From: Octopus vulgaris
Lineage: Eukaryota
Direction: 5' to 3'
Assembly: GCA_951406725.2 (NCBI GenBank)
Contig: OX597830.1
Span: forward strand, 62,000,001 to 62,064,000
DNA length: 64,000 bases
Made by a program: the position numbers and the translations under genes. Shown here piece by piece: positions 1 to 51,300 of this stretch (position 1 is the first letter of the stretch; each line of letters starts with the position of its first letter). Under the pieces are notes generated by a model. That model did not search any database. It was given only the letters and a program-made list of their open reading frames with translations, and was not told the origin of the DNA.

Positions 1-551
1 TCCAAAGTATATCAATCATATACGATGGTGTAAACAACGCAACCGCCTGTTGATGCTGCAGATCGAACTTAGTGGTTCAACCTATTATGTCCTATGCCTC
101 TGCTCGAACCCTGTTGATGTGTGTTGAATACAATGCTGCTGCCTTCTCGTGACAAGTAAACAATTTTATTGACCACTCGACGGAACCTCAGCGAGATATA
201 GTTTGAAATCGCGAAATACGAGTCACTCCTTCAGCAAACAGTAAAACCATTTTCACTGCTTTGCCTTTCATCCTTTCGGGGTCGATAAATAAAGCACAAG
301 TTTCGCACTGGGGGGTCGATGTAATCGACTTAATCCCTTTGTCTGTCCTTGTTTGTCCCCTCTATGTTTAGCCCCTTGTGGGCAGTAAATAAAGAATTAT
401 ATATACTAAACTATACCAGAATCTGAAATCAATTAACGGATGAATTTCAAGACTTTCTTTCCGAAGCTGGTCTCATATTTATGTCGTAAAAAAAAATAGG
501 ATGCAACCTGAATAAAGAAAATTAACATTTCATACAATAAAATAAACTTAC

Positions 552-762
552 CAGCGAGAATGAATGATCCTACACTTGATATAAAACCGGAGAGGAATGA
601 ATTAAACGGGAAGGTGCCAACCACACAAATGTACAAAAACTGCATCACGCCCGTGAGGAAAACATAGACGAGATATGCATCTATAATCTTAAGTTTCTTC
701 GGCGTGTTTGCTATGTATTCGTCCCAAAATTTGGTCAGAACATTTAATATTTTTTCCGGCAT
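552..762 (-). CDS. DAD1: DAD1 (oligosaccharyltransferase subunit DAD1/OST2), coding exon 1; rest of gene lies left of the window
   Basis: Translation [70 protein letters not shown] contains the DAD1 signatures KLKIIDAYL and [15 protein letters not shown]. Exon is 211 nt and ends at donor G|gtaagt (551-546); the ORF-track tail beyond 552 is intron read-through. Confidence 0.95.
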
Positions 763-779
763 GTTTCTTCTAAAAAAGT

Positions 780-1000
780 TTTCTAAAAAGGTTCTGCAAT
801 GATGCCTTATTTACACTCGGAAAATGCGTAACGAAGGAAAGCGGACGTAGCTGAAATGTGACAACGTCAACGTGGCAATGGATTCTCGTATTGCGAGAAT
901 TGAGCGAGATTTCGTTGCTGCTTTCGTTTCACGTGTATTTTACCGAAATTTGCGGGAATCGTCACAGATATGAAAATTTGTTAGGAATTTCGGGCATCAC
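780..1000 (-). promoter_or_regulatory. Probable DAD1 promoter/5' region
   Basis: Locally CpG-rich stretch immediately upstream of the DAD1 ATG; CACGTG at ~930 and CCACGT (minus strand) at ~870-875. TSS not determined. Confidence 0.45.
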
Positions 1001-3237: not shown

Positions 3238-3860
3238 GGATAGTCATTTTTCTTTTTGCCAAATAAACACATGCACTAAATATTCGTTCACTCATTTATT
3301 AATGTTCTTATTTTATAATACACACAAACTCGAGTTTCTGGGCATTGACGCGTCAGAAACTCAAGTCCGTGTGTATCATAAGTTGAAGACGGGAAGGATG
3401 GCTTCCCTTTGCAAACACTGATAGGGCACAGAAAGTGTGTCTATAGCCAGCTGGAGGAGGTGTCCTCCTGGGACTACAAACTACAGTAGCATCCACCCTT
3501 AGGGGTTAGCCATATTTAAATGGCATATGTACGTCACGATGTGTTGTAGCTACTGTTTATAACTTGCTCTGACATTCATTATTGCTTGCTTACACTTTTT
3601 CGATATCAGTGTCTATCGATACTGGAAAAAGTATAAGTGTTTGTGAAGGGAACCTGCTTCTTATTTCATACATTGTCTGGAAATCTTTTGTCACATATTG
3701 GTGACCTCTTCAGTGACCCTTTCCATGCACCTGTATCCTCCAGCTCCATCTAGTCCATTTCCAGACAATGGACATAAGATGAAATAAGAACAATAATAAG
3801 CGAGTGAAGAATGAATATATAGTGTGTGTGTTTATTTGGCAAAAAAAAAAAATTACCATT
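3238..3860. mobile_element. Penelope-like relic with ~75-bp inverted ends
   Basis: 3238-3315 is a diverged reverse complement of 3780-3860; degenerate hammerhead-like motif at 3675-3717 (minus); abuts a (TA)n tract. Confidence 0.45.
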
Positions 3861-15764: not shown

Positions 15765-18700
15765 GGACAAACAAGAGTGCCTAACAATTGATGTGGCAGT
15801 GCCAAGAGATCAACATATTATCATGAAAGAAAGAGAAAAGATTGATAAATACGGAGACCTGAGAATTGAGATTGCCAAGATGTGGCAGCTGGGAGAGACA
15901 AACAAAGGTTGTTCTTGTCATCAGAGCGCTGGGTTCAATATCAGCCAACCTAAAGAAACATCTGGAAACTTTAGAAATACCCTACAATTTAGGTGTTTTG
16001 CAAAAATTGGCATTGCTTGGAACTGCACGCATATTGTGTAAAGTACTGCCTGAAGAGCTGAGTCGCAGACAATAATGGTCGAAAGGGCAATGGAAACATA
16101 CCAAAGAAGGTATGAAGGCATATCTTGAAATAAAGTACCATGTAGAAAATAAAGAGTTCAAAACTGTGGTTGAAACCCTAAAACAACATATTCAAGCAAA
16201 AGTAGTGAAGGGCAACACTACACTGAATGCATATTGCAGTTCCATCAAAACAGACTATTCACAATCAACCAAAAGGCAGTTTTTAGGAGCTTGGGTGGGG
16301 ACACAGAAGGTAATATATCCTCTGAAGCAGAGAAAACCTGACAATTTTGGGATAACATTTGGGGGCAAGAGGTTACCCACAACAATGGTGCTGAGTGGGT
16401 TCATTCCATGAGCTCCAAACTCCAACATCCTGAGGCTCAAAGGCAGAGTCATGTATCTATAATAGAAGATGTAATTGCATAGGTACTGAAAATGCCAAAC
16501 TGGTGAGCAGCAGAGCTAGATGGAATCGAGGCAACTGGCTCAAGTGGTTTAGGTCTGCACACGAATTGTTTTGCAATTAGATGACTGCCTACAAAATGAT
16601 GTGGTTCCAGAATGGATGGTAGAGGGAAAGACAGTACTGTTGATAAAAGATAGATCAAAGGGCAATTACCAACCCATTGCTTGTCTTAACCTCTTAGGGA
16701 AAGTGTTAGCAGGCATCCTCACAAGGAAAATAAATACATCCGATCGTGGCCGTTCGCCAGCCTCGTCTGGCACCTGTGTCGGTGGCACATAAAAAACACC
16801 ATCCGAGTGTGGCCGTCTGCCAGCCTCGTCTGGCACCTGTGTCGGTGGCACATAAAAAACACCATCCGAGCGTGGCCGTCTGCCAGCCTCGTCTGGCACC
16901 TGTGTCGGTGGCACATAAAAAACACCATCCGAACGTCTGCCAGCCTCGTCTGGCACCTGTGTCGGTGGCACATAAAAAACACCATCCGAGCGTGGCCGTC
17001 TGCCAGCCTCGTCTGGCACCTGTGTCGGTGACACATAAAAAACACCATCCGAGCGTGGCCGTCTGCCAGCCTCGTCTGGCACCTGTGTCGGTGGCACATA
17101 AAAAACACCATCCGAGCGTGGCCGTCTGCCAGCCTCGTATGGCACCTGTGTCGGTGGCACATAAAATCACCCACTACACTCTCAGAGTGGTTGGCGTTAG
17201 GAAGGGCATCCAGTTGTAGAAACACTGCCAGATCTGACTGGCCTGGTGCAGCCTTCAGGCTTGCCAGACCCCAGTTGAACCGTCCAACCCATGCTAGCAT
17301 GGAAAGCGGACGTTTAACGATGATGATGATGATGATGATTGCAGAAATCAATCTTATGGCCACAATTAAGAGGAGGAGAAAGGGGAGGAAAAGGAAGTAA
17401 GGTAACTCACCATGGTTGAGACTGGTGCTCGCAGAGTACCGTCCACCTGAATTATATTCACATACTCCTCCCCAAGTGTCTGGAAACCTGAAACAAACAA
17501 AAAAATATACCAGAATATAACTAAAATTATAGTGAATAATATGTACCAAGACCCACAATATTTACCACAGTACAAAACAATATTTGAACTAGAAAATCAA
17601 TACAGCATCGGTTATGAATCAATAAATATGTAGTGTCCCATTTATACTCTTTACTCTCTCTTTTACTCTTTTACTTGTTTCAGTCATTTGACTGCAGCCA
17701 TGCTGGAGCACCGCCTTTAATTGAGCAACTCGACCCTGGGACTTATTCTTTGTAAGCCCAGTACTTATTCTATCGGTCTCTTTTGCCGAACCGCTAAGTG
17801 ATGGGGACGCAAACACACCAGCATCGGTTGTCAAGCAATGCTAGGGGGACAAACACAGACACACAAACATACACACACATACATATATATACATATATAT
17901 GACAGGCTTCTTTCAGTTTCCGTCTACCAAATCCACTCACAAGGCATTGGTCGGCTCGAAGCTATAGTAGAAGACACTTGCCCAAGGTGCCACGCAGTGG
18001 GACTGAACCCGGAACCATGTGGTTAATAAACAAGCTACTTACCACAGAGCCACTCCTGCGCCTATATGTATTTAGTCTTGCAAATAAGTAAACAGTTTGA
18101 GATGAGGATTAATGATTGTTAATTAATATTTCATCATAATTTGTATAACTTATGGAGCCTAATTTCACAGTGAGACACTATCATCATCATCATCATTTAA
18201 CGTCCGTTCTCCATGCTAGCATGAGTTGGACGGTTCGCCCGGGGATCTGGGAAGCCAGAAGGCTGCACCAGGCTCCAGTCTTATCTGGCAATGTTTCTAC
18301 AGCTGGATGCCCTTCTTAACGCCAACCACTCCGTGAGTGTAGTGGGTGCTTTTTACCTGCTACCTGCACAGGTACCAGGCGAGGCTGGCAACGGCCACGG
18401 TCGGATTGGTGCATTTTACGTGCCACCGGCACGGAAGCCAGTCGAGGCGGCACTGGCATCGGCCACGATTCGGATGGTGCTTTTTACGTGCCACCAGCAC
18501 GGAAGCCAGTCGAGGCGGCACTAGCATCGGCCACGATTCGGATAGTGCTTTTTACATACCACCAGGGGTTCTGGCATCTGCCGAGTGCCAGTCATAGGAT
18601 TGGTTCAATTTCAATTCCGATTTCGATTTCACTTGCCCCGACAGGTCATCGCAAGCAAGACGGGTGCCTGTTGTCGGATGAGGTTCGATATCGACTTCGC

Positions 18701-21700
18701 TTGCCTCAACAGGTCTTTGTGTGTCCAAGGGAGGAAAGGCATGCAAAAGTGGGCTGGACTCACTTGTTCTGCCTGGTCTTCTCACGCACAGCATATTTCC
18801 AAAGGTATCGGTCGCTGGTCATTTCCTCAGTGAGGCCTAAAGTTCGAAGGTCGTGCTTCACCACCTCGTCCCAGGTTTTCCTGGGTCTACCTCTTCCACG
18901 GGTTCCCTCAACTGCTAGGGATTGGCACTTTTTCACACACCTATCTTCATCCATTCTCGCCACATGACCATACCAGCGCAATCGTCTCTCTTGCACACCA
19001 CAACTGATGCTTCTTAGGTCCAACATTTCTCTCAAGGTACTAACGCTCTGTCGAGTATGCACACTGACATTACACGTCCATCGGAGCATACTGGCTTCAT
19101 TCCTCGCGAGCTTACGCATGTCCCTCAGCAGTCACGGCCCATGTTTCACTGCCATGTAGCATGGCTGTTCGTACACATGCATCATACAGTCTGCCTTTTA
19201 CTCTGAGCAAGGGGCCTTTAGTCACCAGCAGAGGTAAGAGCTCCCTAAACTTTGCCCAGGCAATTCTTACTCTAGCAATTACACTTTCAACGCACCCACC
19301 CCAACTACTGACTTGGTCACCTAGATAACGGAAGCTATCAACTACTTCTAGTTTTTCCCCCTGGAAAGTGATGGAAGTTGTTTTCTGCAGATTTTCAGAG
19401 TTTATTGCTCCTGAGCATCTGCCACATACAAAAACTATCTTCCCAGTTAGCCTTCCTTTGACATTGCTGCACCTATTATGCGTCCATAGCTTACACTGGG
19501 TACATCTTATAGAGTTTCTACCTACACCTTTTCTACAGATCAAGCAGGGCCATCTTCCTGAAGACATTTGTGGATTGTCTACCTTCCTACTTATTAGTAC
19601 TTTGGTTTTAGCTAGGTTGACTCTAAGGCCCCTCGATTCTAAACCCTCCTTCCACACCTGGAACGTCTCCTCCAGTTCTGATAGTGACTCAGCAATTAGA
19701 GCAAGGTCGTAAGCATAGAGGAGCTCCCAGGGGCATCCTGTCTTGAATTCCTCCGTAATTGCCTGGAGGACTATGATAAATAGGTGGGGGCTGAGTACTG
19801 AACCCTGGTGGACCCCAACCTCTACTTTGAATTTTTCTGTGTACATGTTGCCAACCCTAACCTTACTTACGGCATCCCTGTACATGGCTTGCACAGCCCT
19901 CACCAGCCATTCATCTATCCCTAGTTTCCTCATTGACCACCAGATAAGGGATCGGGGGACCCTGTCAAAGGCTTTCTCCATGTCAACGAAAGCCAAGTAC
20001 AGGGGCTTATCTTTGGCTAGGTATTTCTCCTGCAGCTGTCTCACCAGAAATATGGCATCAGTGGTGCTTTTCCCTGGCATGAAACCAAACTGCATGTCGT
20101 CCAAGTTGACTCTCTCCCTAATCAGTTGGGCTATGACCCTCTCTGTAACCTTCATTACCTGATCCAACAGCTTGATACCTCTGTAATTATTTGTATCTAG
20201 GGCGTCTCCTTTACCTTTGTAGCAGTTGACTAGTATGCTGCTACACCAGTCATTGGGTATGACTCCTTCGTGTATCACCTGGTTAACTATACGGGTGACT
20301 AGGTTATAGCCGACACTGCCAGATATTTTGAGCATCTCTGTCAGTTAAAGCAACGATGGTTCCAGTTGATCCAATCAAGGGAGCACACTGACCAATGACA
20401 CATGTACCCATGACATAGTTTTCATGAAGATTCACTGTGAAACAGAATGTGACAAGGCTGACCCTTTAAAATACAGTTTCAACCCATTTTTGCCAGCTGA
20501 GTGGACTGGAGCTACATGAAATAAAGACACTTGCTCAAGAACACAATGTGCTGCCAGGAATTGAACTTACAACCTTATGAGTGTGAGCTGAATGCCCTAA
20601 CCACTAAGCCACATGTCCTTTCTATTTAAAACATACATCATCATCATCATTGTTTAACGTCCGCTTTCCATGCTAGCATGGGTTGGACGATTTTGATGGA
20701 GGGCTGGCGAACCAGATGGCTGCACCAGGCTTCAATCTTGATCTGGCAAAGTTTCTACAGAGCTGTTTTATGTTCAAACTGAAAGGATTAATCTTACATA
20801 TATTCTACAATGTTGTTCTAAACTAAACAAACACACCATCAAAATCTCAAAACTATGAGATAATGCCTGATTAATTCAAAACAATCTGAATGAATGAACA
20901 AGTACATTTGATAGTGTAACCTGAATACTAAAAGAGGGCTAAACTGACAGAACATTGGAAAGAAATACTTTACTCTTAACTCTTTTACTTGTTTCAGTCA
21001 TTTGACTGCGGCCATGTTGGAGCACCGCCTTTAGTCGAGCAAATCAACCCCGGGACTTATTCTTTGTAAGCCCAGTACCTATTCTATCGGTCTCCCTTAT
21101 AAACAAGGGCAAAAGAAAAATTATTTCCATGCCAATATGCTGATAACAGACTTTTTATTCGTCAATTTCCACTTATCATGATACACTCACTATAAATACA
21201 CGTCGTGCTGAAATCGGGGAAGCTAGTCAACAGAATTTTTTAAAAATTCAATATAGAAATAACAAACTTTTTTTTTTAAATTCTGTTGACTAGCTTCCCC
21301 AATTTCAGCACGACGTGTATTTATAGTGAGTGTATCATGATAAGTGGAAATTGACGAATAAAAAGTCTGTTATCAGCATATTGGCATGGAAATAATTTTT
21401 CTTTTGCCCTTGTTTATAAGTTATAAGTAAGTTTTTATATATAATTATGATGCGCACTCTCTAACCCATTACTTGACCTTTCTTTCCTTCCTGTCTGTCT
21501 TCCTCTCTACCGGTCTCTCTCCTTCTTATTTTTCACCCTTTCTGGTTTCCTTTCCTCTTTATCTCTCTCTCTCTCTCACTCCTCCTCATCTCTCTCACTG
21601 CTGAGTGGACTACTAACTTTCTTTTGCTCGTAGCTTTCTACAAGTCAACACCGACTTTTTCTGTCTCTAGAAAGTCGATTCTAAATTGCGCTCCGAATTT

Positions 21701-36283: not shown

Positions 36284-39200
36284 TTTGGTCAGATCACCAA
36301 ATGAATGGAACAGGCACTTGGAAAGTTTATAAAATGGTTGAAGAACTTGGTATGTGGTATGTTAGTAAATTGAACAGTTTTACAGATATTTTTCTACTCT
36401 GGCTCAGTTGGTGAATAGTTACTATACTGTTAGGTGAAAGATTTTGGTGGTCATATCCTAATAGTCAATATATTGTTCCAAGCAAGGACCCTTGCTCTAC
36501 TGGCTTTTATCTTGCTGAACTAGTTACCATTCCACATAGTCATCATCATCATCATCGTTTAACGTCCGTTCTCCATGCTAGCATGGGTTGGACGGTTCGA
36601 CCGGGGATCTGGGAAGCCAGAAGGCTGCACCAGGCTCCAGTCTTATCTGGCAATGTTTCTACTGCTGGATGCCCTTCCTAACGCCAACCACTCCGTGAGT
36701 GTAGTGGGTGCTTTTTACGTGCCACCTGCACTGGTGCCAGGCGAGGCTGGCATCGGCCATGGTCGGATTGGTGCATTTTACGTGCCACCTGCACGGAAGC
36801 CAGTCGAGGCGACACTGGCTTCGGCCACGATTCAGATGGTGCTTTTTACGTGCCACCGACACGGAAGCCAGTATGCGTGATTAATGTTCAGCATAAATTA
36901 GTAGGTACTTACAGTTATTAAATAAAATAAAACATAAAAAACAGTAACAAAACTGTAAGGATCTGTAGTTGTAAGTTAACATTGCTTGTAGGAAATGCTG
37001 AATTTCTGTAATTCATGTTCATAGTTTGGAAGATAAAATGTGATTTTTAGAGGTGTGTTAAATTACTTCAGATGAAAGCATGGCAGAAATCGTGGAATAT
37101 GTAATGTATTTGTAGAAATCATAAAACATCAAACTGCTTTGTTATATTTGATTTCACTCTGTATGCTCTGTATTGGAATTCCACCTGAATTAAGTTTTCT
37201 TTTCACCCTTCTGGGGTTCATAAAGTAAAGTACCAGTCAAATACTATGATCATTTTAATCAATTGTTCCCATATGCAGCAGGCTAGAGTGGTAGAGCCCA
37301 AATTCCTGCCTAACCTTGGGGTTGCAGCAAGGAGGTGAAACGCTTGTTGAAATACACTGTTGACCCCAATGTTATTTGTAACACCCTACATTACTCCCAG
37401 TACAAATTACCCCCTCCATTTTCTTATTCATGCACCCACACACACAGTTAGCCACTTTGTGAACTAATATTTATCTATTTTACTTCTGCCTTTTGAGTTG
37501 TTCTAAGTCACAATGATATGTATTTTTTGTTTGAGACTAATGAACATTTTCAGATATAGTTAAATTAACTGCAACTTTTTCTCCCCTAATTTTAGACAAA
37601 GACAAGGTCCTAAATGCTGATAGCCTGCAACAATCACTTTACCAAGGCCTTTCCAAATTGTATAATACTGTAAGTTTAAGTTTATATAAATTCTAACACA
37701 GCATTTTACTTTCATCATCATCATCATCATCATCCTCATTTAACGTCCGCTTTCCATGCTAGCATGGGTTGGACGGTTCAACTGGAGTCTGGGGAGCCCG
37801 AAGGCTGCACCAGGCCAGTCAGATCTGGCAGTGTTTCTACAGCTGGATGCCCTTCCTAACGCCAACCACTCCGAGAGTGTAGTGGGTGATTTTATGTGCC
37901 ACCGACACAGGTGCCAGACGAGGCTGGCGAACGGCCACGCTCGGATGGTGTTTTTTTTTTAAGTGCCACCGACACAGGTGCCAGACGAGGCTGGCAGACG
38001 GCCACGCTCGGATGGTGTTTTTATGTGCCACCGACACAAGTGCCATTTATTATTATGCAAAAGTTATTATGTGCTAATTTAGTTAGCAGAGACAACCCCC
38101 TTTGCTTGCGAAGACGTTGGGGCAAGCGAAATCGAAATCGAATTGAACCAGCCAGGATCCCTGGTCTGGTGGTACGTAAAAAGCACTATCCGACTCGTGG
38201 CCGATGCCAGCGCCGCCTCGACTGGCTTCCGTGCCGGTGGCACATAAAATACACCAATCCGACCGTGGCCGTTGCCAGCCTCGCCTGGCACCTGTGCAGG
38301 TGGCACGTAAAAAGCACCCACTACACTCTCGGAGTGGTTGGCGTTAGGAAGGGCATCCAGCTGTAGAAACATTGCCAGATCAGACTGGAGCCTGGTGCAG
38401 CCTTCTGGCTTCCCAGATCCCCGGTCGAACCGTCCAACCCATGCTAGCATGGAGAACGGACGTTAAACGATGATGATGATGATATTATCCTGAAATTTGG
38501 TGGCAGGTTTCCTCAAATTTCAAGAATCTTTCTTAGTATTATTGTAAAACACAGGATAGTACTTTTGTCAGTTGACAATGTGCGTCAATCCCAATAACCT
38601 TTAGTGTTTTAGGTAGCAGTTTTGGTACTGTGTCAAGTGCATTAATTGCCACAGAAAGAGTTTCCATCCTTATGTTCCACATTCCCTTCATCTCTTTGGC
38701 TAGATCATGATATTTTTCAATTTTCTCAGTTTCCATTATATCCACTCTGTGCCGTATGTGATTGCAAAGTTTATGATTTTACACTGTCTATCATTTATGT
38801 ACCCCACAGTCATTTCTAGTCTCCTGGACCTTGTTAGTATGTTGGTGGTACAAGATGTGAATGGTAGCAAAGGTGGTACATTTAGACTGGAGGCCGTTTA
38901 TGCCTTGATGGGCTGTAAGGCCAGATTTCTTCATATATCTAGAAACTTTCCTGAGAATAACTTGTACTTTAGTGCTAGTGGGGGACTAGAATTGTATTTT
39001 GCACACACAGAATGACAGTGTGGAGTTAGTGCCGAGCAGAAGAAGGTGCAAAAGCCTCATAAACCTGCATGGAAACTTCCAGCTGTTTGACAGATAACAA
39101 TTGGATTTTCCTCATGTACAAGTGTGGACGTGGCACAACCTCAATGGATCATCCAGATCATATGTAGATAGAGTGGTGGTAAGAGTGGCTGTGTGGTAAG

Positions 39201-45300: not shown

Positions 45301-48300
45301 GACACAAACACACACACACGCATATATATATATATATACATATATACGACGGGCTTCTTTCAGTTTCCGTCTACCAAATCCACTCACAAGGCTTTGGTTG
45401 GCCCGAGGCTATAGTGGAAGACACTTGCCCTAGGTGCCACGCAGTGGGACTGAATCTGGAACCATGTGGTTGGTAAACAAGCTACTTACCACACAGCCAC
45501 TCCTGCGCCTAATAGTTAAAAGAAACACAGTGCATCTTAAAATAAATACAGTAACGAAAGGGTTAAATAAATCTACGGCTATGCATCAGAATTATAGACA
45601 TTTTTGCATTACCTTGTTTCAAAATCATTCACTCTTCAGCTTTCTCAATTGACTGCACTTAATTTTGATTGTTGTTGTATTACTACAGCATGCATTCTTT
45701 TGTAACTAAACATTCTCTCAAGATTGGTTTTCCTTTTTTAAAGAAAATTTTCACGTTCTTCTTACTTTTCATTGATGTTGAGTTTAATATTGCCAGACCA
45801 GCTTCAACTGCTGAGACAGATTTGAAATATATAAATCTTATAATTAATGGCTTCTTGGCTTTTAACTCTTGCTTGATGGGGGCTGAGTTAGTGGTCCAAG
45901 GTATCATCTTGCATAGAGCCAACCAGGTCGAATCTCAAGACACTAAGCCTTACAAAGGAGATAAGGGACCAAAATATCTGGCACCTTGCTGTACACTAGA
46001 AGACCTGCCCATCACAGCAGAATTGATATTCTAAACCACCTTAATGCTTGTCTGTGAGGGACTCTGCCCCATGCCCACCTACACTCTCTCTGCTTTGTCA
46101 ACCACTTCCCCCACCTTTCATCCCCTAACACCCATCACCTGAGAGCAGAATAGGTGTATACTACATCCCCTTGCTTTCCCAGTTACCTTCTCTACCCTAA
46201 ACCACTTCAATTTCCTATTATCTTCCCCCACCTGCTGTCTCCACCAATCCACTCCTTCCTGGGCCTTCTCTTCCCAGTGTTGTTCTCCATCAACACCTCA
46301 CTTATCTGCTATCATCATCATCATCATCATCATTTAGCATCTGCTTTCCATGCTAGCATGGGTTGGACGGTTCAACTGGGGTCTGGGAATATGCCCTCAC
46401 ATATTTATTGCGGCCCCCACACTCAAGCCATTCCTGTATTTCACTTTATCATTTGCCTCAGTCATCTGTATCCTTCCGCAACTGCCCCAGGGAGAAAAAT
46501 TCAAACAATTATGGAGAATATTCTGCCTGAAATCGATCAACATCAATGGAAATTGTAGCTGTGATACAAGTGCCGGTGGCACGTAAGAGAACCATCCGAA
46601 CGTGGCCGTTGCCAGTGCCGCCCCGACTGGCCTCCGTGCCGGTGGCACGTAAAAAGCACCATCCGATTGTGGCCGTTTGCCAGCCTCGTCTGGCACGTAA
46701 AAAGCACCCACTACACTCATGGAGTGGTTGGCGTTAGGAAGGGCATCCAGCTGTAGAAACACTGCCAGATCAGACTGGGCCTAGCGCAGCCTACTGGCTC
46801 CCCAGACCCCAGTTGAACCGTCCAACCCATGCTTGCATGGAAAACGGACGTTAAACGATGATGATGATAATTGTAGAAAAGAAGCAAAACAAGATTTGAA
46901 CAACCAGCACAAGAAGTACATGAGACAGTTCCATTGCAGACAGCCAGTATGGGTGTGGCAATTTGGAAAGGAATATTTAGTGTGATCACCTGGTATAGTT
47001 AAAAAGCAATTTGGATAAGCAAATCTGGACATGACATGATAATCAACTGTGGAAAAGAGAAATAACTTCAGATAATAGAAATCAAAGAAGCGAGATATAC
47101 CTGCACATTCTGCTGGAAGAATTCAATGGATCTTTATCACAGGAACATGCTCAAAAGAATGATTTTTCAATGTCAAGCTCAATGAAGTTCTACTTGAATT
47201 CACCAAAAGCCAAAAAGGGGTCATTTTAGATTCACACAAAAAGTCCTATGACAGAGGAATTTAATGTTTTTTTGTTGAAAGGGAAGGTGTTGGGGGATAA
47301 GATGACCAATAGTTATTTTGCATGTAAACATGGCATTCAACCTGTTGTATTCCTGCAAGTCAGTCTTTTTTCCAGGTGTGCATTCTCACTTGGGATTTTT
47401 GTCTGGTGGACAGCTTTCGTTTTGCTGATTATTATAACTCTTATGCAAGTAAAACAAGTTTCGGATCTTTTTGCTTTGACCGGCAGATTCTTAAAATAAT
47501 TTCTTTGTAACTAAACACTTTTAAACTTCGTATACTGGTAGAATGTGTTTATAAAACATCTTTTTCTCTTGGCTTTCTTAAGAAAATTCTGTAGTTTGTA
47601 AGCTATTTCTTGTTTATTTTCTTGCATTTCTGCAATTTCAACCAATCAATGATGTCTATTGAGGTGAATTCAATATCTCCGGAGCGTTGTCAACAACAAT
47701 TATTTCCAGTGTCATATGAAATTGTCCCTTTTACTTAGCCATGCTAATATGGAAAGTGGACGTTAAATGATGATGATGATGAAGGTGATAAATGGTTTGT
47801 TCTACCATTTGTGATTAAGGAGTAATATAAAATATAGTTTATAAACGGGAAGAAAACTATTTTGATGAATTTGCTGAGGCTGAGCTTCTATTTTGCAGGA
47901 GTGTGAATGGAATTTTATATTTTTTACAGATATATGTTTTTTTTGTGTTAGTTTTAAATAATAAAAATATATCATGTTATATATTTATATTTATCACTTA
48001 TATATTATAACTACTTTCATTCTACGTAAGGGGTATTAGCCATCTGAATGTGGCTAGCCACTGGGGGTGGGGTGTTACTGATGCTTTTAGCCCCAGGCAA
48101 TCAACGTCACCAGAAGGACTTTAGACACTATCTCAGTGCCCTTGTGTTATTTGCAAAGGGAGGTCATCCTCCCTCGAAGACCCGAGTACTACATACGGAC
48201 TATAGTTTCAAGGTAATTGCCTCTCGTTAATGCATAGTGAGCACCGGTCTTCGATGAAGGCGTCCCCTTGCAAATAATATATAACGTTTTTCACAGCAAC

Positions 48301-51300
48301 CACTGTCACTGATGTAGAAAAACTGTCTGAAAACAATAATAAATCTCTGAACGAGATATAAACAGTAACCGCTCGACAACGTAAGGGGTATTAGCCATCT
48401 GAATGTGGCTAGCCACTGGGAGGGGGTTACTGATGCTTTTAGCCCCAGGCGATCAACGTCACCAGAAGGACTTTAGACACTATCTCAGTGCCCTTGTGTT
48501 ATTTGCAAAGGGAGGTCATCCTCCCTCGAAGACCCGAGTACTACCAGAGGTTTATTATTACTTTCATTCTATTTTCCAGGAAATTTTGGATTTTATGGGA
48601 TTTTCTGATTACAAAAGAATGCAGTTAAGTGGCAAGGATGTCAGTTCATTGGCTACAATGGCTTTGAATAACTTTTCTAAGGTAATTTTTCATGATGTAG
48701 AATATCATAATTTTACATTAAATGATTTTATTATTTCAGTGAGAGTAGTGAGATGACAGAATTGTTAGAACATGGGATAAAATGCTTTGCAGTATTTTTT
48801 TTCACTTTTTACATTCTAAGTACTTATTGAATTGAAGCAGAGCTTTCAGTAGGGGCTGCTTGCAGCCTATGTCAATCTCTGCAAGGCATTTGAATTAGTG
48901 GACAGGGATATCCTTTGGAGCATACTGAAGTTGTGAGGTATACCTCCTTAACTGAATGGGCTGATGACCTTATACACTGGAACAGTAAGTGCAGTTTGAA
49001 TTGAGGGTTCAACATCTGACAGTTTGACCTCCAGTTAGATCTGTTGTCTGTCAGAGTTGCGTTTTGGCTCTCACTCTGTTCAACCCGCATGGATTGGATA
49101 CTTAGCAGAAAGGTGACTTGATCAAGTTGCGGTGCATTAATTGGTAAAACTGGGATTACAAGCCTAGAATTTGCTGGTGATGCAGTTGTTCTTGCTGAAC
49201 CTCTGGATATCTTAAGGAGCACTCTCCTTTCACTGAGTGAGGAAGTAGAACCACTTGGCCTTAGAGTTTCTTGGGTGAAGACAAAGATCCAGTTCTTCAT
49301 TGGCTTCTTGGAGGAATCCATCTCGTCTGTCTCTGTTGAGATTTATAGTGGCATTAGTTGCAAATTTAAAAAGACTTGGATGACCTGATGCAGTTGCGAA
49401 CTCATTGGGCAAGGCTGTATGACGCTGCCGATATCTGTGCAGGAGGACAAAGAGGTTCAGGTCTTTAAGCTTTTGGTCCTCCCTGAAGACTTGGACATGA
49501 TCTGGGGCCCTTAGGAAATGACTGCACTGCTTTGATACCTGGAGTCTTCTCATGGTTATAGGTTACCATTAGCCAGATTTTGTATCCAACCAATCACTCT
49601 CACTCAGAAACTTTACCCTGATCTTTATCTCTGTCTTCTCACCATCTACACTGGATATCTCTCTCTTTCCTCCCACCACCACTACTTGATGTCTCTTCTC
49701 CCCACTGCTCCTCCTCACTGGGCTGTTCCCTATATACTACCTGCACTCTTCCTCTCTCTCTTGGGACATAATGCAACTAACTCAGTTGCCCTTCGTTACA
49801 CACAGATATACATTTTTTTTGCATGTAATCTATTTTTTCATAATATCTACTTAGATATACATCTCTCACCTATTCTAAATATTACTACTTCTATTATTAT
49901 TATCATAATTAATTATTACCAATCTATTTGATATTTTTAATTTTTATTTTTTTTACTGTTGATATACGTAAACATTCTTTTATATTTTTCCATGACTATT
50001 TTTTGCCCTTATATATCTTTTTTATTTCTATTTCCTTTATTATCTTTTCCCCCCTTCCCTCTTTTTTTTAATCTTTCTTATACGTAATCTATTCCATTTA
50101 TATAATATGTATTTATTTTTTAGAAAATACTTCCTCCCTTGACTATCCCATTAAAAAAAAATTTTTTTGTGTCTCACAAATCTACCTCTATTAACCAAAA
50201 TCTTACAGATTGTATATGTTTATAGGTACAGCGAAATCGAATTGAACCAGCCAGGATCCCTGGTCTGGTGGTACGTAAAAAGCACTATCCGACTCGTGGC
50301 CGATGCCAGCGCCGCCTCGACTGGCTTCCGTGCCGGTGGCACATAAATTACACCAATCCGACCGTGGCCGTTGTCAGCCTTGCCCGGCACCTGTGCAGGT
50401 GGCACGTAAAAAGCACCCACTACACTCACGGAGTGGTTGGCGTTAGGAAGGGCATCAAGCTGTAGAAACATTGCCAGATTTGACTGGAGCCTGGTGCAGC
50501 CTCCTGGCTTCCCAGATCCCCGGTCGAACCGTTCCAACCCATGCTAGCATGGAGAACGGACGTTAAACGATGATGATGATGATGTACAGTAATTTTTAAC
50601 GCACAACAATCACCTCCACAAACTGAACTCACTCTCACAGATATAGTTTATCTCTCTGGTTATGCATACAAAGAGTCTTATAATATTTCCACATTCTTTT
50701 CTCATTATTAGTATTATTACTATCTTTATTTTTCCTTTATAATTGTTAATGCTACCTTTAAAGTTCTTTTCTACTTTTATATTAGCACCGATTAATATAA
50801 TAGATTATACATTATATTCCATATTTCACTTCTTACTTATTTGAGTGTGTGTGTGTGTTTGTGCTCCATATTCATACTCCCATGGATTTAAGTATATAGT
50901 AATGTGTGCATCTGTGTTACCATGTTGAATGAAAAACTCTAACTGATACAATTGCTTTGGTGTTGGAAAAGACTTTTGCGGATTCCATGCACAGCGAGGC
51001 TCACCAATGGAGAAGTTCTTAAGCAGATAAGGCCAAAAATGTCGCTAGAAGCTGGGATCACCAAGCGCAGATTGGCATATTTCGGTCATATTATGCGGAG
51101 AGAATCCCTGGAGAAGGACATCATGCTCGGAATGGTCAGTGGCAAGAGAGGAAGAGGCCGACCAAGAACCCACTGGCTTGACACCATCAGGAGTGGTACC
51201 GGAATGGACATGGCCAGTCTGAAGGAAGAACTGACTGGAGGACACTGATCCAAAGATTGGCCGAGAGTCGACTTCGACTGAGCGGTTAGAGAGAGAGAGA

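Follow-up and report, generated by a model that had tools for sequence, protein, structure and literature searches.

The closest described relatives of the element analysed here are the metazoan non-long-terminal-repeat (non-LTR) retrozymes, whose units measure 350–390 nt in mussel and 331/353 nt in axolotl (Cervera and de la Pena 2020, PMC7229834). The enzyme that spreads them was left open in 2020 between a long interspersed nuclear element (LINE) and a Penelope-like element (PLE), with dependence on PLEs already suggested (PMC7229834), and in 2026 a preprint on vertebrate PLE-derived retrozymes argued for such dependence from co-occurrence and from similarity to PLE pseudo-long terminal repeats (pLTRs) in Xenopus (Li, Clavereau, Pollet, bioRxiv 10.64898/2026.07.22.740005). 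PLEs themselves are described with tails, inverted arms and a bias towards microsatellites (PMC8557442), the tail being the span that separates two internal starts of reverse transcription (PMC11167929). Here we analyse a 355-nt hammerhead ribozyme unit in a 64,000-nt stretch of the Octopus vulgaris genome (contig OX597830.1, positions 62,000,001 to 62,064,000; hereafter the window), which belongs to a non-LTR retrozyme family probably mobilised in trans by the reverse transcriptase (RT) and GIY-YIG of a co-resident PLE. The dependence of animal retrozymes on PLEs argued in the preprint is thus reached here on a different basis, that of insertion footprint and fusions.

As in the retrozymes of PMC7229834, the octopus family consists of non-coding tandem units of ~355 nt with a type I hammerhead, a short palindromic stem III, a highly paired predicted circle, long target-site duplications (TSDs) and co-resident PLEs, and the U·U base of stem II found in axolotl Amex2 recurs in one octopus subfamily; it differs in being known from DNA alone, with the circle only predicted. 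A counted PLE-type footprint of tails and inverted arms, a covarying 3-8 pair within one family and fusions to a PLE at cut sites have no counterpart in the available text of that paper. At the level of DNA the element is a non-LTR retrozyme (a tandem and dispersed non-coding unit, a type I hammerhead and a TSD), and the family is a further example of an expected kind of element for which the mechanistic evidence is unusually direct.

The window element belongs to a dispersed 355-nt hammerhead family; it inserted recently and is polymorphic. Contigs of the public runs X15 and X16 connect 48011 to 48559, with 13 letters matching either side, and the right junction of the insertion is present in run X20, where the family base is read at 48550. 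The insertion measures 534 nt, to which a 13-bp TSD is added, and some samples lack it. An earlier note on this DNA had proposed a retrotransposed, more-than-unit-length copy of a non-LTR retrozyme, which is borne out, the copy being one of a dispersed family that has intact cores. Its 13-bp exact TSD (48012-48024 = 48559-48571) stands with the empty site; its extension to about 19 bp with one indel was wrong, because the 14 nt at 48545-48558 are not target but derive, inverted, from the tail end of the element itself. The reported recurrence of 48025-48192 at 48380-48544 is likewise present, with 2 substitutions and one 3-nt gap, and the partial unit does begin 5 nt past the equivalent of the cut site, a position compatible with chance. 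As the note had also said, no coding capacity is evident, zero open reading frames (ORFs) of at least 120 amino acids overlapping the element.

The family is large and repetitive within its own genome. A DNA search returned 156 matches from the best 40 of 2,653 candidates, the full-length ones mostly 94–98% identical, and an exact 17-mer near the 3′ end that we call A has 1,766 matches genome-wide. A subfamily hammerhead 24-mer has 228 matches, with UUGACGA in 99/100 among the matches listed, and the canonical CTGACGA core that the earlier note had proposed to seek in the family consensus occurs, fully canonical as CUGACGA, in 98 exact copies. The 135 non-redundant insertions analysed come from three samples (top matches, hammerhead motif and end motif), after removal of loci that overlapped and of a fusion locus present in duplicate. 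More than 1.2 units are present in 68 of these insertions, and unit length is 353–360 nt in 13 of 14 folded arrays and 376 nt in the other. Comparison of the unit with viral and metagenome contigs gave no exact match. An older, truncated member of the same retrozyme family, ~70% identical and still bearing part of the 3′ half of the hammerhead, lies at 3356-3641 (+) of the window, and at locus L063 (G000:C1:94319500-94329000) a copy within an RTE-like ORF has been amplified with its flank into a 1.38-kb tandem of four.

The insertions carry a two-ended footprint. Among 202 outer 3′ ends in the 135 insertions, 104 fall at site A, 82 at site B and 16 elsewhere (A or B in 186/202), site B lying ~47 nt beyond A and the two delimiting a tail. 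Head-to-head insertions combine A with B in 53 of the 135 and like ends in 4 (B+B 3, A+A 1); inverted arms are undercounted here, the 14-nt arm in the window being too short for the count to register. The window copy, with an A-primed arm of 520 nt and an inverted B-primed arm of 14 nt, matches this pattern. (TA)5 occurs in 107 of 201 3′ flanks compared to 582 of 9,899 background windows (5.9%), and a TSD of 9–16 bp accompanies 25 of 57 non-microsatellite insertions compared to 3 of 300 mismatched controls. Two 3′ ends with a tail, an inverted 5′-truncated arm, AT or (TA)n targets and a type I hammerhead, including the U3-A8 form, are shared with endonuclease-positive (EN+) PLEs of the Neptune/Nematis type (PMC8557442, PMC11167929, PMC4209133). 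The octopus unit differs from these in lacking an ORF, in a tail of about 45–50 nt versus their 30–40, in forming arrays of the unit only, and in a hammerhead of canonical size where theirs is minimal.

Mobilisation by RTE or another LINE, as the earlier note had supposed, is by contrast very improbable. RTE-like ORFs are abundant, and long TSDs and inversions occur with LINEs too, but each arm terminates at one of two fixed internal 3′ ends, the ends lack the poly(A) or short-repeat tail of a LINE/RTE-type short interspersed nuclear element, insertion targets (TA)n, and the fusions described below are to a PLE. This rival was judged by the insertion footprint and the fusions. The two fixed 3′ ends, head-to-head arms and (TA)n flanks, together with co-resident PLE families, lead us to favour a PLE over RTE.

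Two young PLE families are candidate partners. PLE-A has a 781-amino-acid frame and many copies 93–99% identical; PLE-B has a 765-amino-acid frame (L233), and a 3′ motif of it has 1,416 matches. They are 65% identical to each other, each encodes RVT_1 and GIY-YIG, and both carry a CxxxxCxxC linker of Neptune/Nematis type (a putative clade assignment). Each family has two 3′ ends in (TA)n and, by eye, a U3-A8 minimal hammerhead, and a TATAT..CTCGT motif was likewise seen by eye in the tails of the retrozyme, PLE-A and PLE-B, about 15–25 nt before end B. Neither family is supported as the sequence parent of the unit, resemblance being confined to the short tail motif. This separates the octopus unit, whose sequence is unlike the pLTRs of both active PLEs studied here, from the Xenopus retrozymes (10.64898/2026.07.22.740005), and from Chlamys MRC1, which is also a non-autonomous PLE passenger with head-to-tail copies, but of a type that shares its 3′ sequence with an autonomous family and of a clade described as lacking canonical hammerheads (PMC8557442). 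PLE-A, a very young family, is found at L238 (G000:C4:115255500-115262000) and L239, with many open 781-amino-acid frames and, upstream, a 479-amino-acid frame of no known family; its pLTR holds repeated boxes that we take to be CCAAT- and CRE-like. The minimal hammerhead of PLE-B (L233, L202-L231) carries GCAA where the motif otherwise has GAAA, and 7 of 30 PLE-B matches share a variant with G17.

An alternative assigns the unit to an unfound autonomous PLE as a mere pLTR, the dispersed copies being its 5′-truncated ends. The footprint is the same as that of PLE pLTRs, the Xenopus retrozymes do match pLTRs (10.64898/2026.07.22.740005), and the PLE families examined number two; the arrays nevertheless make this improbable, since the upstream neighbour of a unit is another unit, in arrays that reach 6 or more full units. 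PLE protein matches, present at 4 of the loci searched, each lie at least hundreds of bases from the insertion, with none at 11 further canonical loci (0/11), and no ORF with RT and GIY-YIG is joined to a unit at the loci searched. Candidate pLTR-ORF-pLTR elements, sought as hammerhead pairs 1.4–13 kb apart, proved to be local duplications with unrelated LINE ORFs.

In the PLE-dependent mechanism that we favour, multimeric transcripts would be cut by hammerhead dimers paired via the palindromic stem III, and an RtcB-type ligase would probably circularise the monomers. The tail region may then be bound by the PLE protein, which would nick AT-rich DNA with a ~13-nt stagger; reverse transcription would begin inside the unit, from site A for one strand and from site B for the other, and pass the cut site for a variable length. 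The 5′ termini are informative about the template. Across 209 termini the distribution is near uniform (fullest 8-nt window, P = 0.06), and the clustering at the cut site expected by the earlier note is not seen, with 4 of 209 termini at −2..+5 versus 4.7 expected. A start at exactly +1 occurs at three loci (3/6 matches), weak evidence as there is no neighbouring-position count for comparison. PLE-B behaves differently: about 11 of 30 arms (12 with one sequence variant included) end at −29..−36 before its cut, ~30 nt past a TATA-like box, and this pile-up is likely its transcription start. The retrozyme termini show no run-off point, which fits either a circle or a long read-through RNA, and the absence of a common 5′ end, set against the PLE-B pile-up, fits an endless template. 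One run that may be RNA covers the unit together with other repeats and is given no weight here, and in assembled contigs junctions like those of a circle also arise from tandem copies in the DNA. A TATA-like stretch at 48275-48284 (-) of the window is kept in all subfamilies and lies ~30 nt before the start of the fusions described below; ordinary copies have no 5′ pile-up ~30 nt downstream of it.

The ribozyme itself is supported by variation among copies. An Rfam scan found no hammerhead at E ≤ 5, nor (by Rfam only) a ribozyme in the opposite polarity, so the call depends on manual fit and covariation. The hammerhead string reported earlier does sit at 48236-48192 (minus), with the cut predicted between 48198 and 48197. 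Among 42 hammerheads of the end-motif sample the core reads CUGACGA in 15, UUGACAA or UUGAUAA (U3-A8) in 18, UUGACGA (U3·G8) in 6 and otherwise in 3. In 24 hand-picked copies the 3-8 pair is UA in 11, UG in 8 and CG in 5 and never unpaired; 97.7% of cells are paired, and both sides are altered in 10 pairs. Stem III is ACCGGU, ACCUAGGU or ACUAUAGU in the main subfamilies and always palindromic, as expected of dimeric hammerheads, and U3-A8 hammerheads are known from PLEs (PMC4209133). Predicted cofolds gave an intermolecular stem III for a canonical copy and a different dimer for a U3·G8 copy. The window's subfamily (U3·G8) has two wobble changes, including a G·U closure of stem II. The window copy adds G5A and a stem I A·C mismatch, both private to it (1/44 hammerheads), and its ribozyme is for this reason predicted to be dead; G5A most likely arose at or after insertion. 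The earlier suggestion that a dead core kept the multimer uncut does not hold, as G5A is private and canonical-core copies form arrays of at least 6 full units; the hammerhead is intact in at least 2 consecutive units of canonical-core arrays at L107, L188 and L295.

Folding predictions agree that the unit is strongly structured. The 355-nt unit has z = −3.41, with 0 of 100 shuffles as good, and 14 natural units folded as circles have z from −2.7 to −7.1 (12 shuffles each), with 60–67% of the predicted circle paired. The self-complementary long stem described earlier was recovered, with arms at 48147-48182 and 48246-48277. The rod shape held in part: the unit is strongly paired, in the form of a long stem with the ribozyme at its tip, accompanied by branched hairpins, and not as a full viroid-like rod.

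We also weighed the same PLE mobilisation acting on linear, uncut read-through RNA of tandem arrays; circles would then be infrequent or without importance, and the ribozyme would be in decay in the subfamily to which the window copy belongs. The absence of 5′ ends at the cut, the mixing of variants inside some arrays and the two wobble changes all speak for this template, and hammerhead mutants of an anole PLE still insert in vitro (PMC11167929). Against it stand the covariation of core, stem III and long stem across subfamilies, three cut-site fusions all from the U3·G8 subfamily, and the lack of a common 5′ end of the PLE-B sort, and we regard it as unlikely, though a serious contender. Several observations count against circles mobilised by a PLE. 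At 13 of 123 variable array sites both alleles are shared with at least 3 other loci (non-CpG; some poly-C), so that some arrays are not the repeated copy of a single circle; in these cases the template must have been several RNAs or a heterogeneous multimer. Within-array unit distance is about equal to the distance from the nearest other locus. The partner is a candidate, the PLE families examined being PLE-A and PLE-B only; alignment of the unit to their pLTRs gave nothing above shuffles, resemblance being limited to the short tail motif. The copies that covary are a hand-picked set from four subfamilies and hence represent few evolutionary events, the insertion samples were motif-drawn and come mostly from contigs C1-C7, and a literature search, with incomplete coverage of subscription papers, gave no report on the activity of U3·G8 hammerheads.

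A further link between the retrozyme and a PLE is a set of fusions at predicted cut sites. At C1:1716107 (duplicated at 1719687), C5:142466238 and C15:13484393, comprising five arms, ~50 nt of retrozyme terminating at C17 is joined to PLE-B. The PLE-B parent reads ACCGGT followed by five As in 40 of 45 arms, while the fusions read GTC followed by four As (three As in one of five arms), so that PLE-B begins at +1 after its own predicted A17 and the retrozyme side is without microhomology. The retrozyme part is of the U3·G8 subfamily at all three loci. The loci carry two retrozyme variants and three different PLE-B variants, the latter also segregating among the parental copies, so the three fusions are likely independent events. 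A genome-wide pattern allowing any non-C base after C17 gave 11 matches, namely the 5 fusion arms, 5 CpG-type substitutions and 1 internal re-join, the last at the same site (C17) as the fusions. For the PLE-B cut site as a possible junction hot spot, where the A-run blurs breaks and background is high, 30 matches comprise 4 fusion arms, 8 A17 substitutions and 18 other junctions. No fusions of canonical or U3-A8 subfamilies to PLE-B were found, 5 of 9 matches belonging to the three known loci and 4 being chance hits, versus 5 in the control. A crossover in shared GT is ruled out by the retention at all three loci of C17 and then four As (three in the one arm), and a hetero-dimeric hammerhead was rejected as source on inspection, stem I being unable to form between the two RNAs. 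L249 and L253, on different contigs, have the same fold-back junction, which falls on the palindrome of stem III; one of its arms begins at +1, just past the cut.

The fusions suggest that both RNAs were cut in vivo and that their products were then joined, by ligation or through a template jump, a reading drawn from three events. RtcB joins retrozyme ends in vitro (PMC7229834), and the one in vitro PLE study found no reads ending at the hammerhead site (PMC11167929); our literature searches, in which subscription papers were poorly covered, found neither a cut-site fusion nor a cephalopod retrozyme. We tentatively extend these observations to a scheme that we hold plausible rather than probable: retrozyme and Penelope would both self-cleave in the germline, with U3·G8 active in vivo, and their products would be cross-joined within a Penelope particle, through either an RtcB-type ligase or a jump of the RT; an unrelated RNA circle would parasitise Penelope by imitating no more than a short signal in the tail, and would be reverse-transcribed in rolling-circle fashion from two internal starts. 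In this family the start sites of the RT are mapped, natural variants of the core exist, and candidate partner proteins have long open frames; the three fusions tag the cut positions of both RNAs, making both the mobiliser of retrozymes and in vivo cutting by PLE hammerheads directly testable.

Table 1. Features of the retrozyme insertion, in window positions.
Feature	Position	Strand	Remark
Left TSD copy, 13 bp	48012..48024	+	Outer 1 nt ambiguous; empty site in runs X15 and X16
Full 355-nt retrozyme unit	48025..48379	-	Ends (3′) at 48025, which is end A, the fixed end without tail in this family
5′-truncated upstream partial unit, 0.47 unit	48380..48544	-	Start 5 nt past cut equivalent, compatible with chance
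Type I hammerhead, predicted dead in window copy	48192..48236	-	Manual fit and covariation among copies
Hammerhead stem I	48236-48231 / 48197-48192	-	
Hammerhead core UUAACGA	48230-48224	-	U3 subfamily-wide, G5A private
Hammerhead stem II	48223-48210	-	
Stem III palindrome ACUAUAGU	48206-48199	-	
Predicted cut	48198^48197	-	Hammerhead of window copy
Long stem bearing ribozyme, 5′ arm	48246..48277	-	
Long stem, 3′ arm	48147..48182	-	Block-compensated between subfamilies
Tail segment, bounded by the fixed 3′ ends (A and B)	48330..48379	-	
Hairpin ATCTCGTTCAGAGAT inside tail segment	48357-48343	-	
Inverted 14-nt piece; second, head-to-head arm	48545..48558	+	Terminus is the family's tail end B
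Right TSD copy, 13 bp	48559..48571	+	

Elsewhere in the window, tandem arrays of a GC-rich unit lie within an abundant repeat at 16666-17561 and 37890-38462, and RTE-like RT fragments occupy 18760-20344. An exon at 433-810 (-) belongs to what we take, from its translation, to be a DAD1/OST2-like gene.

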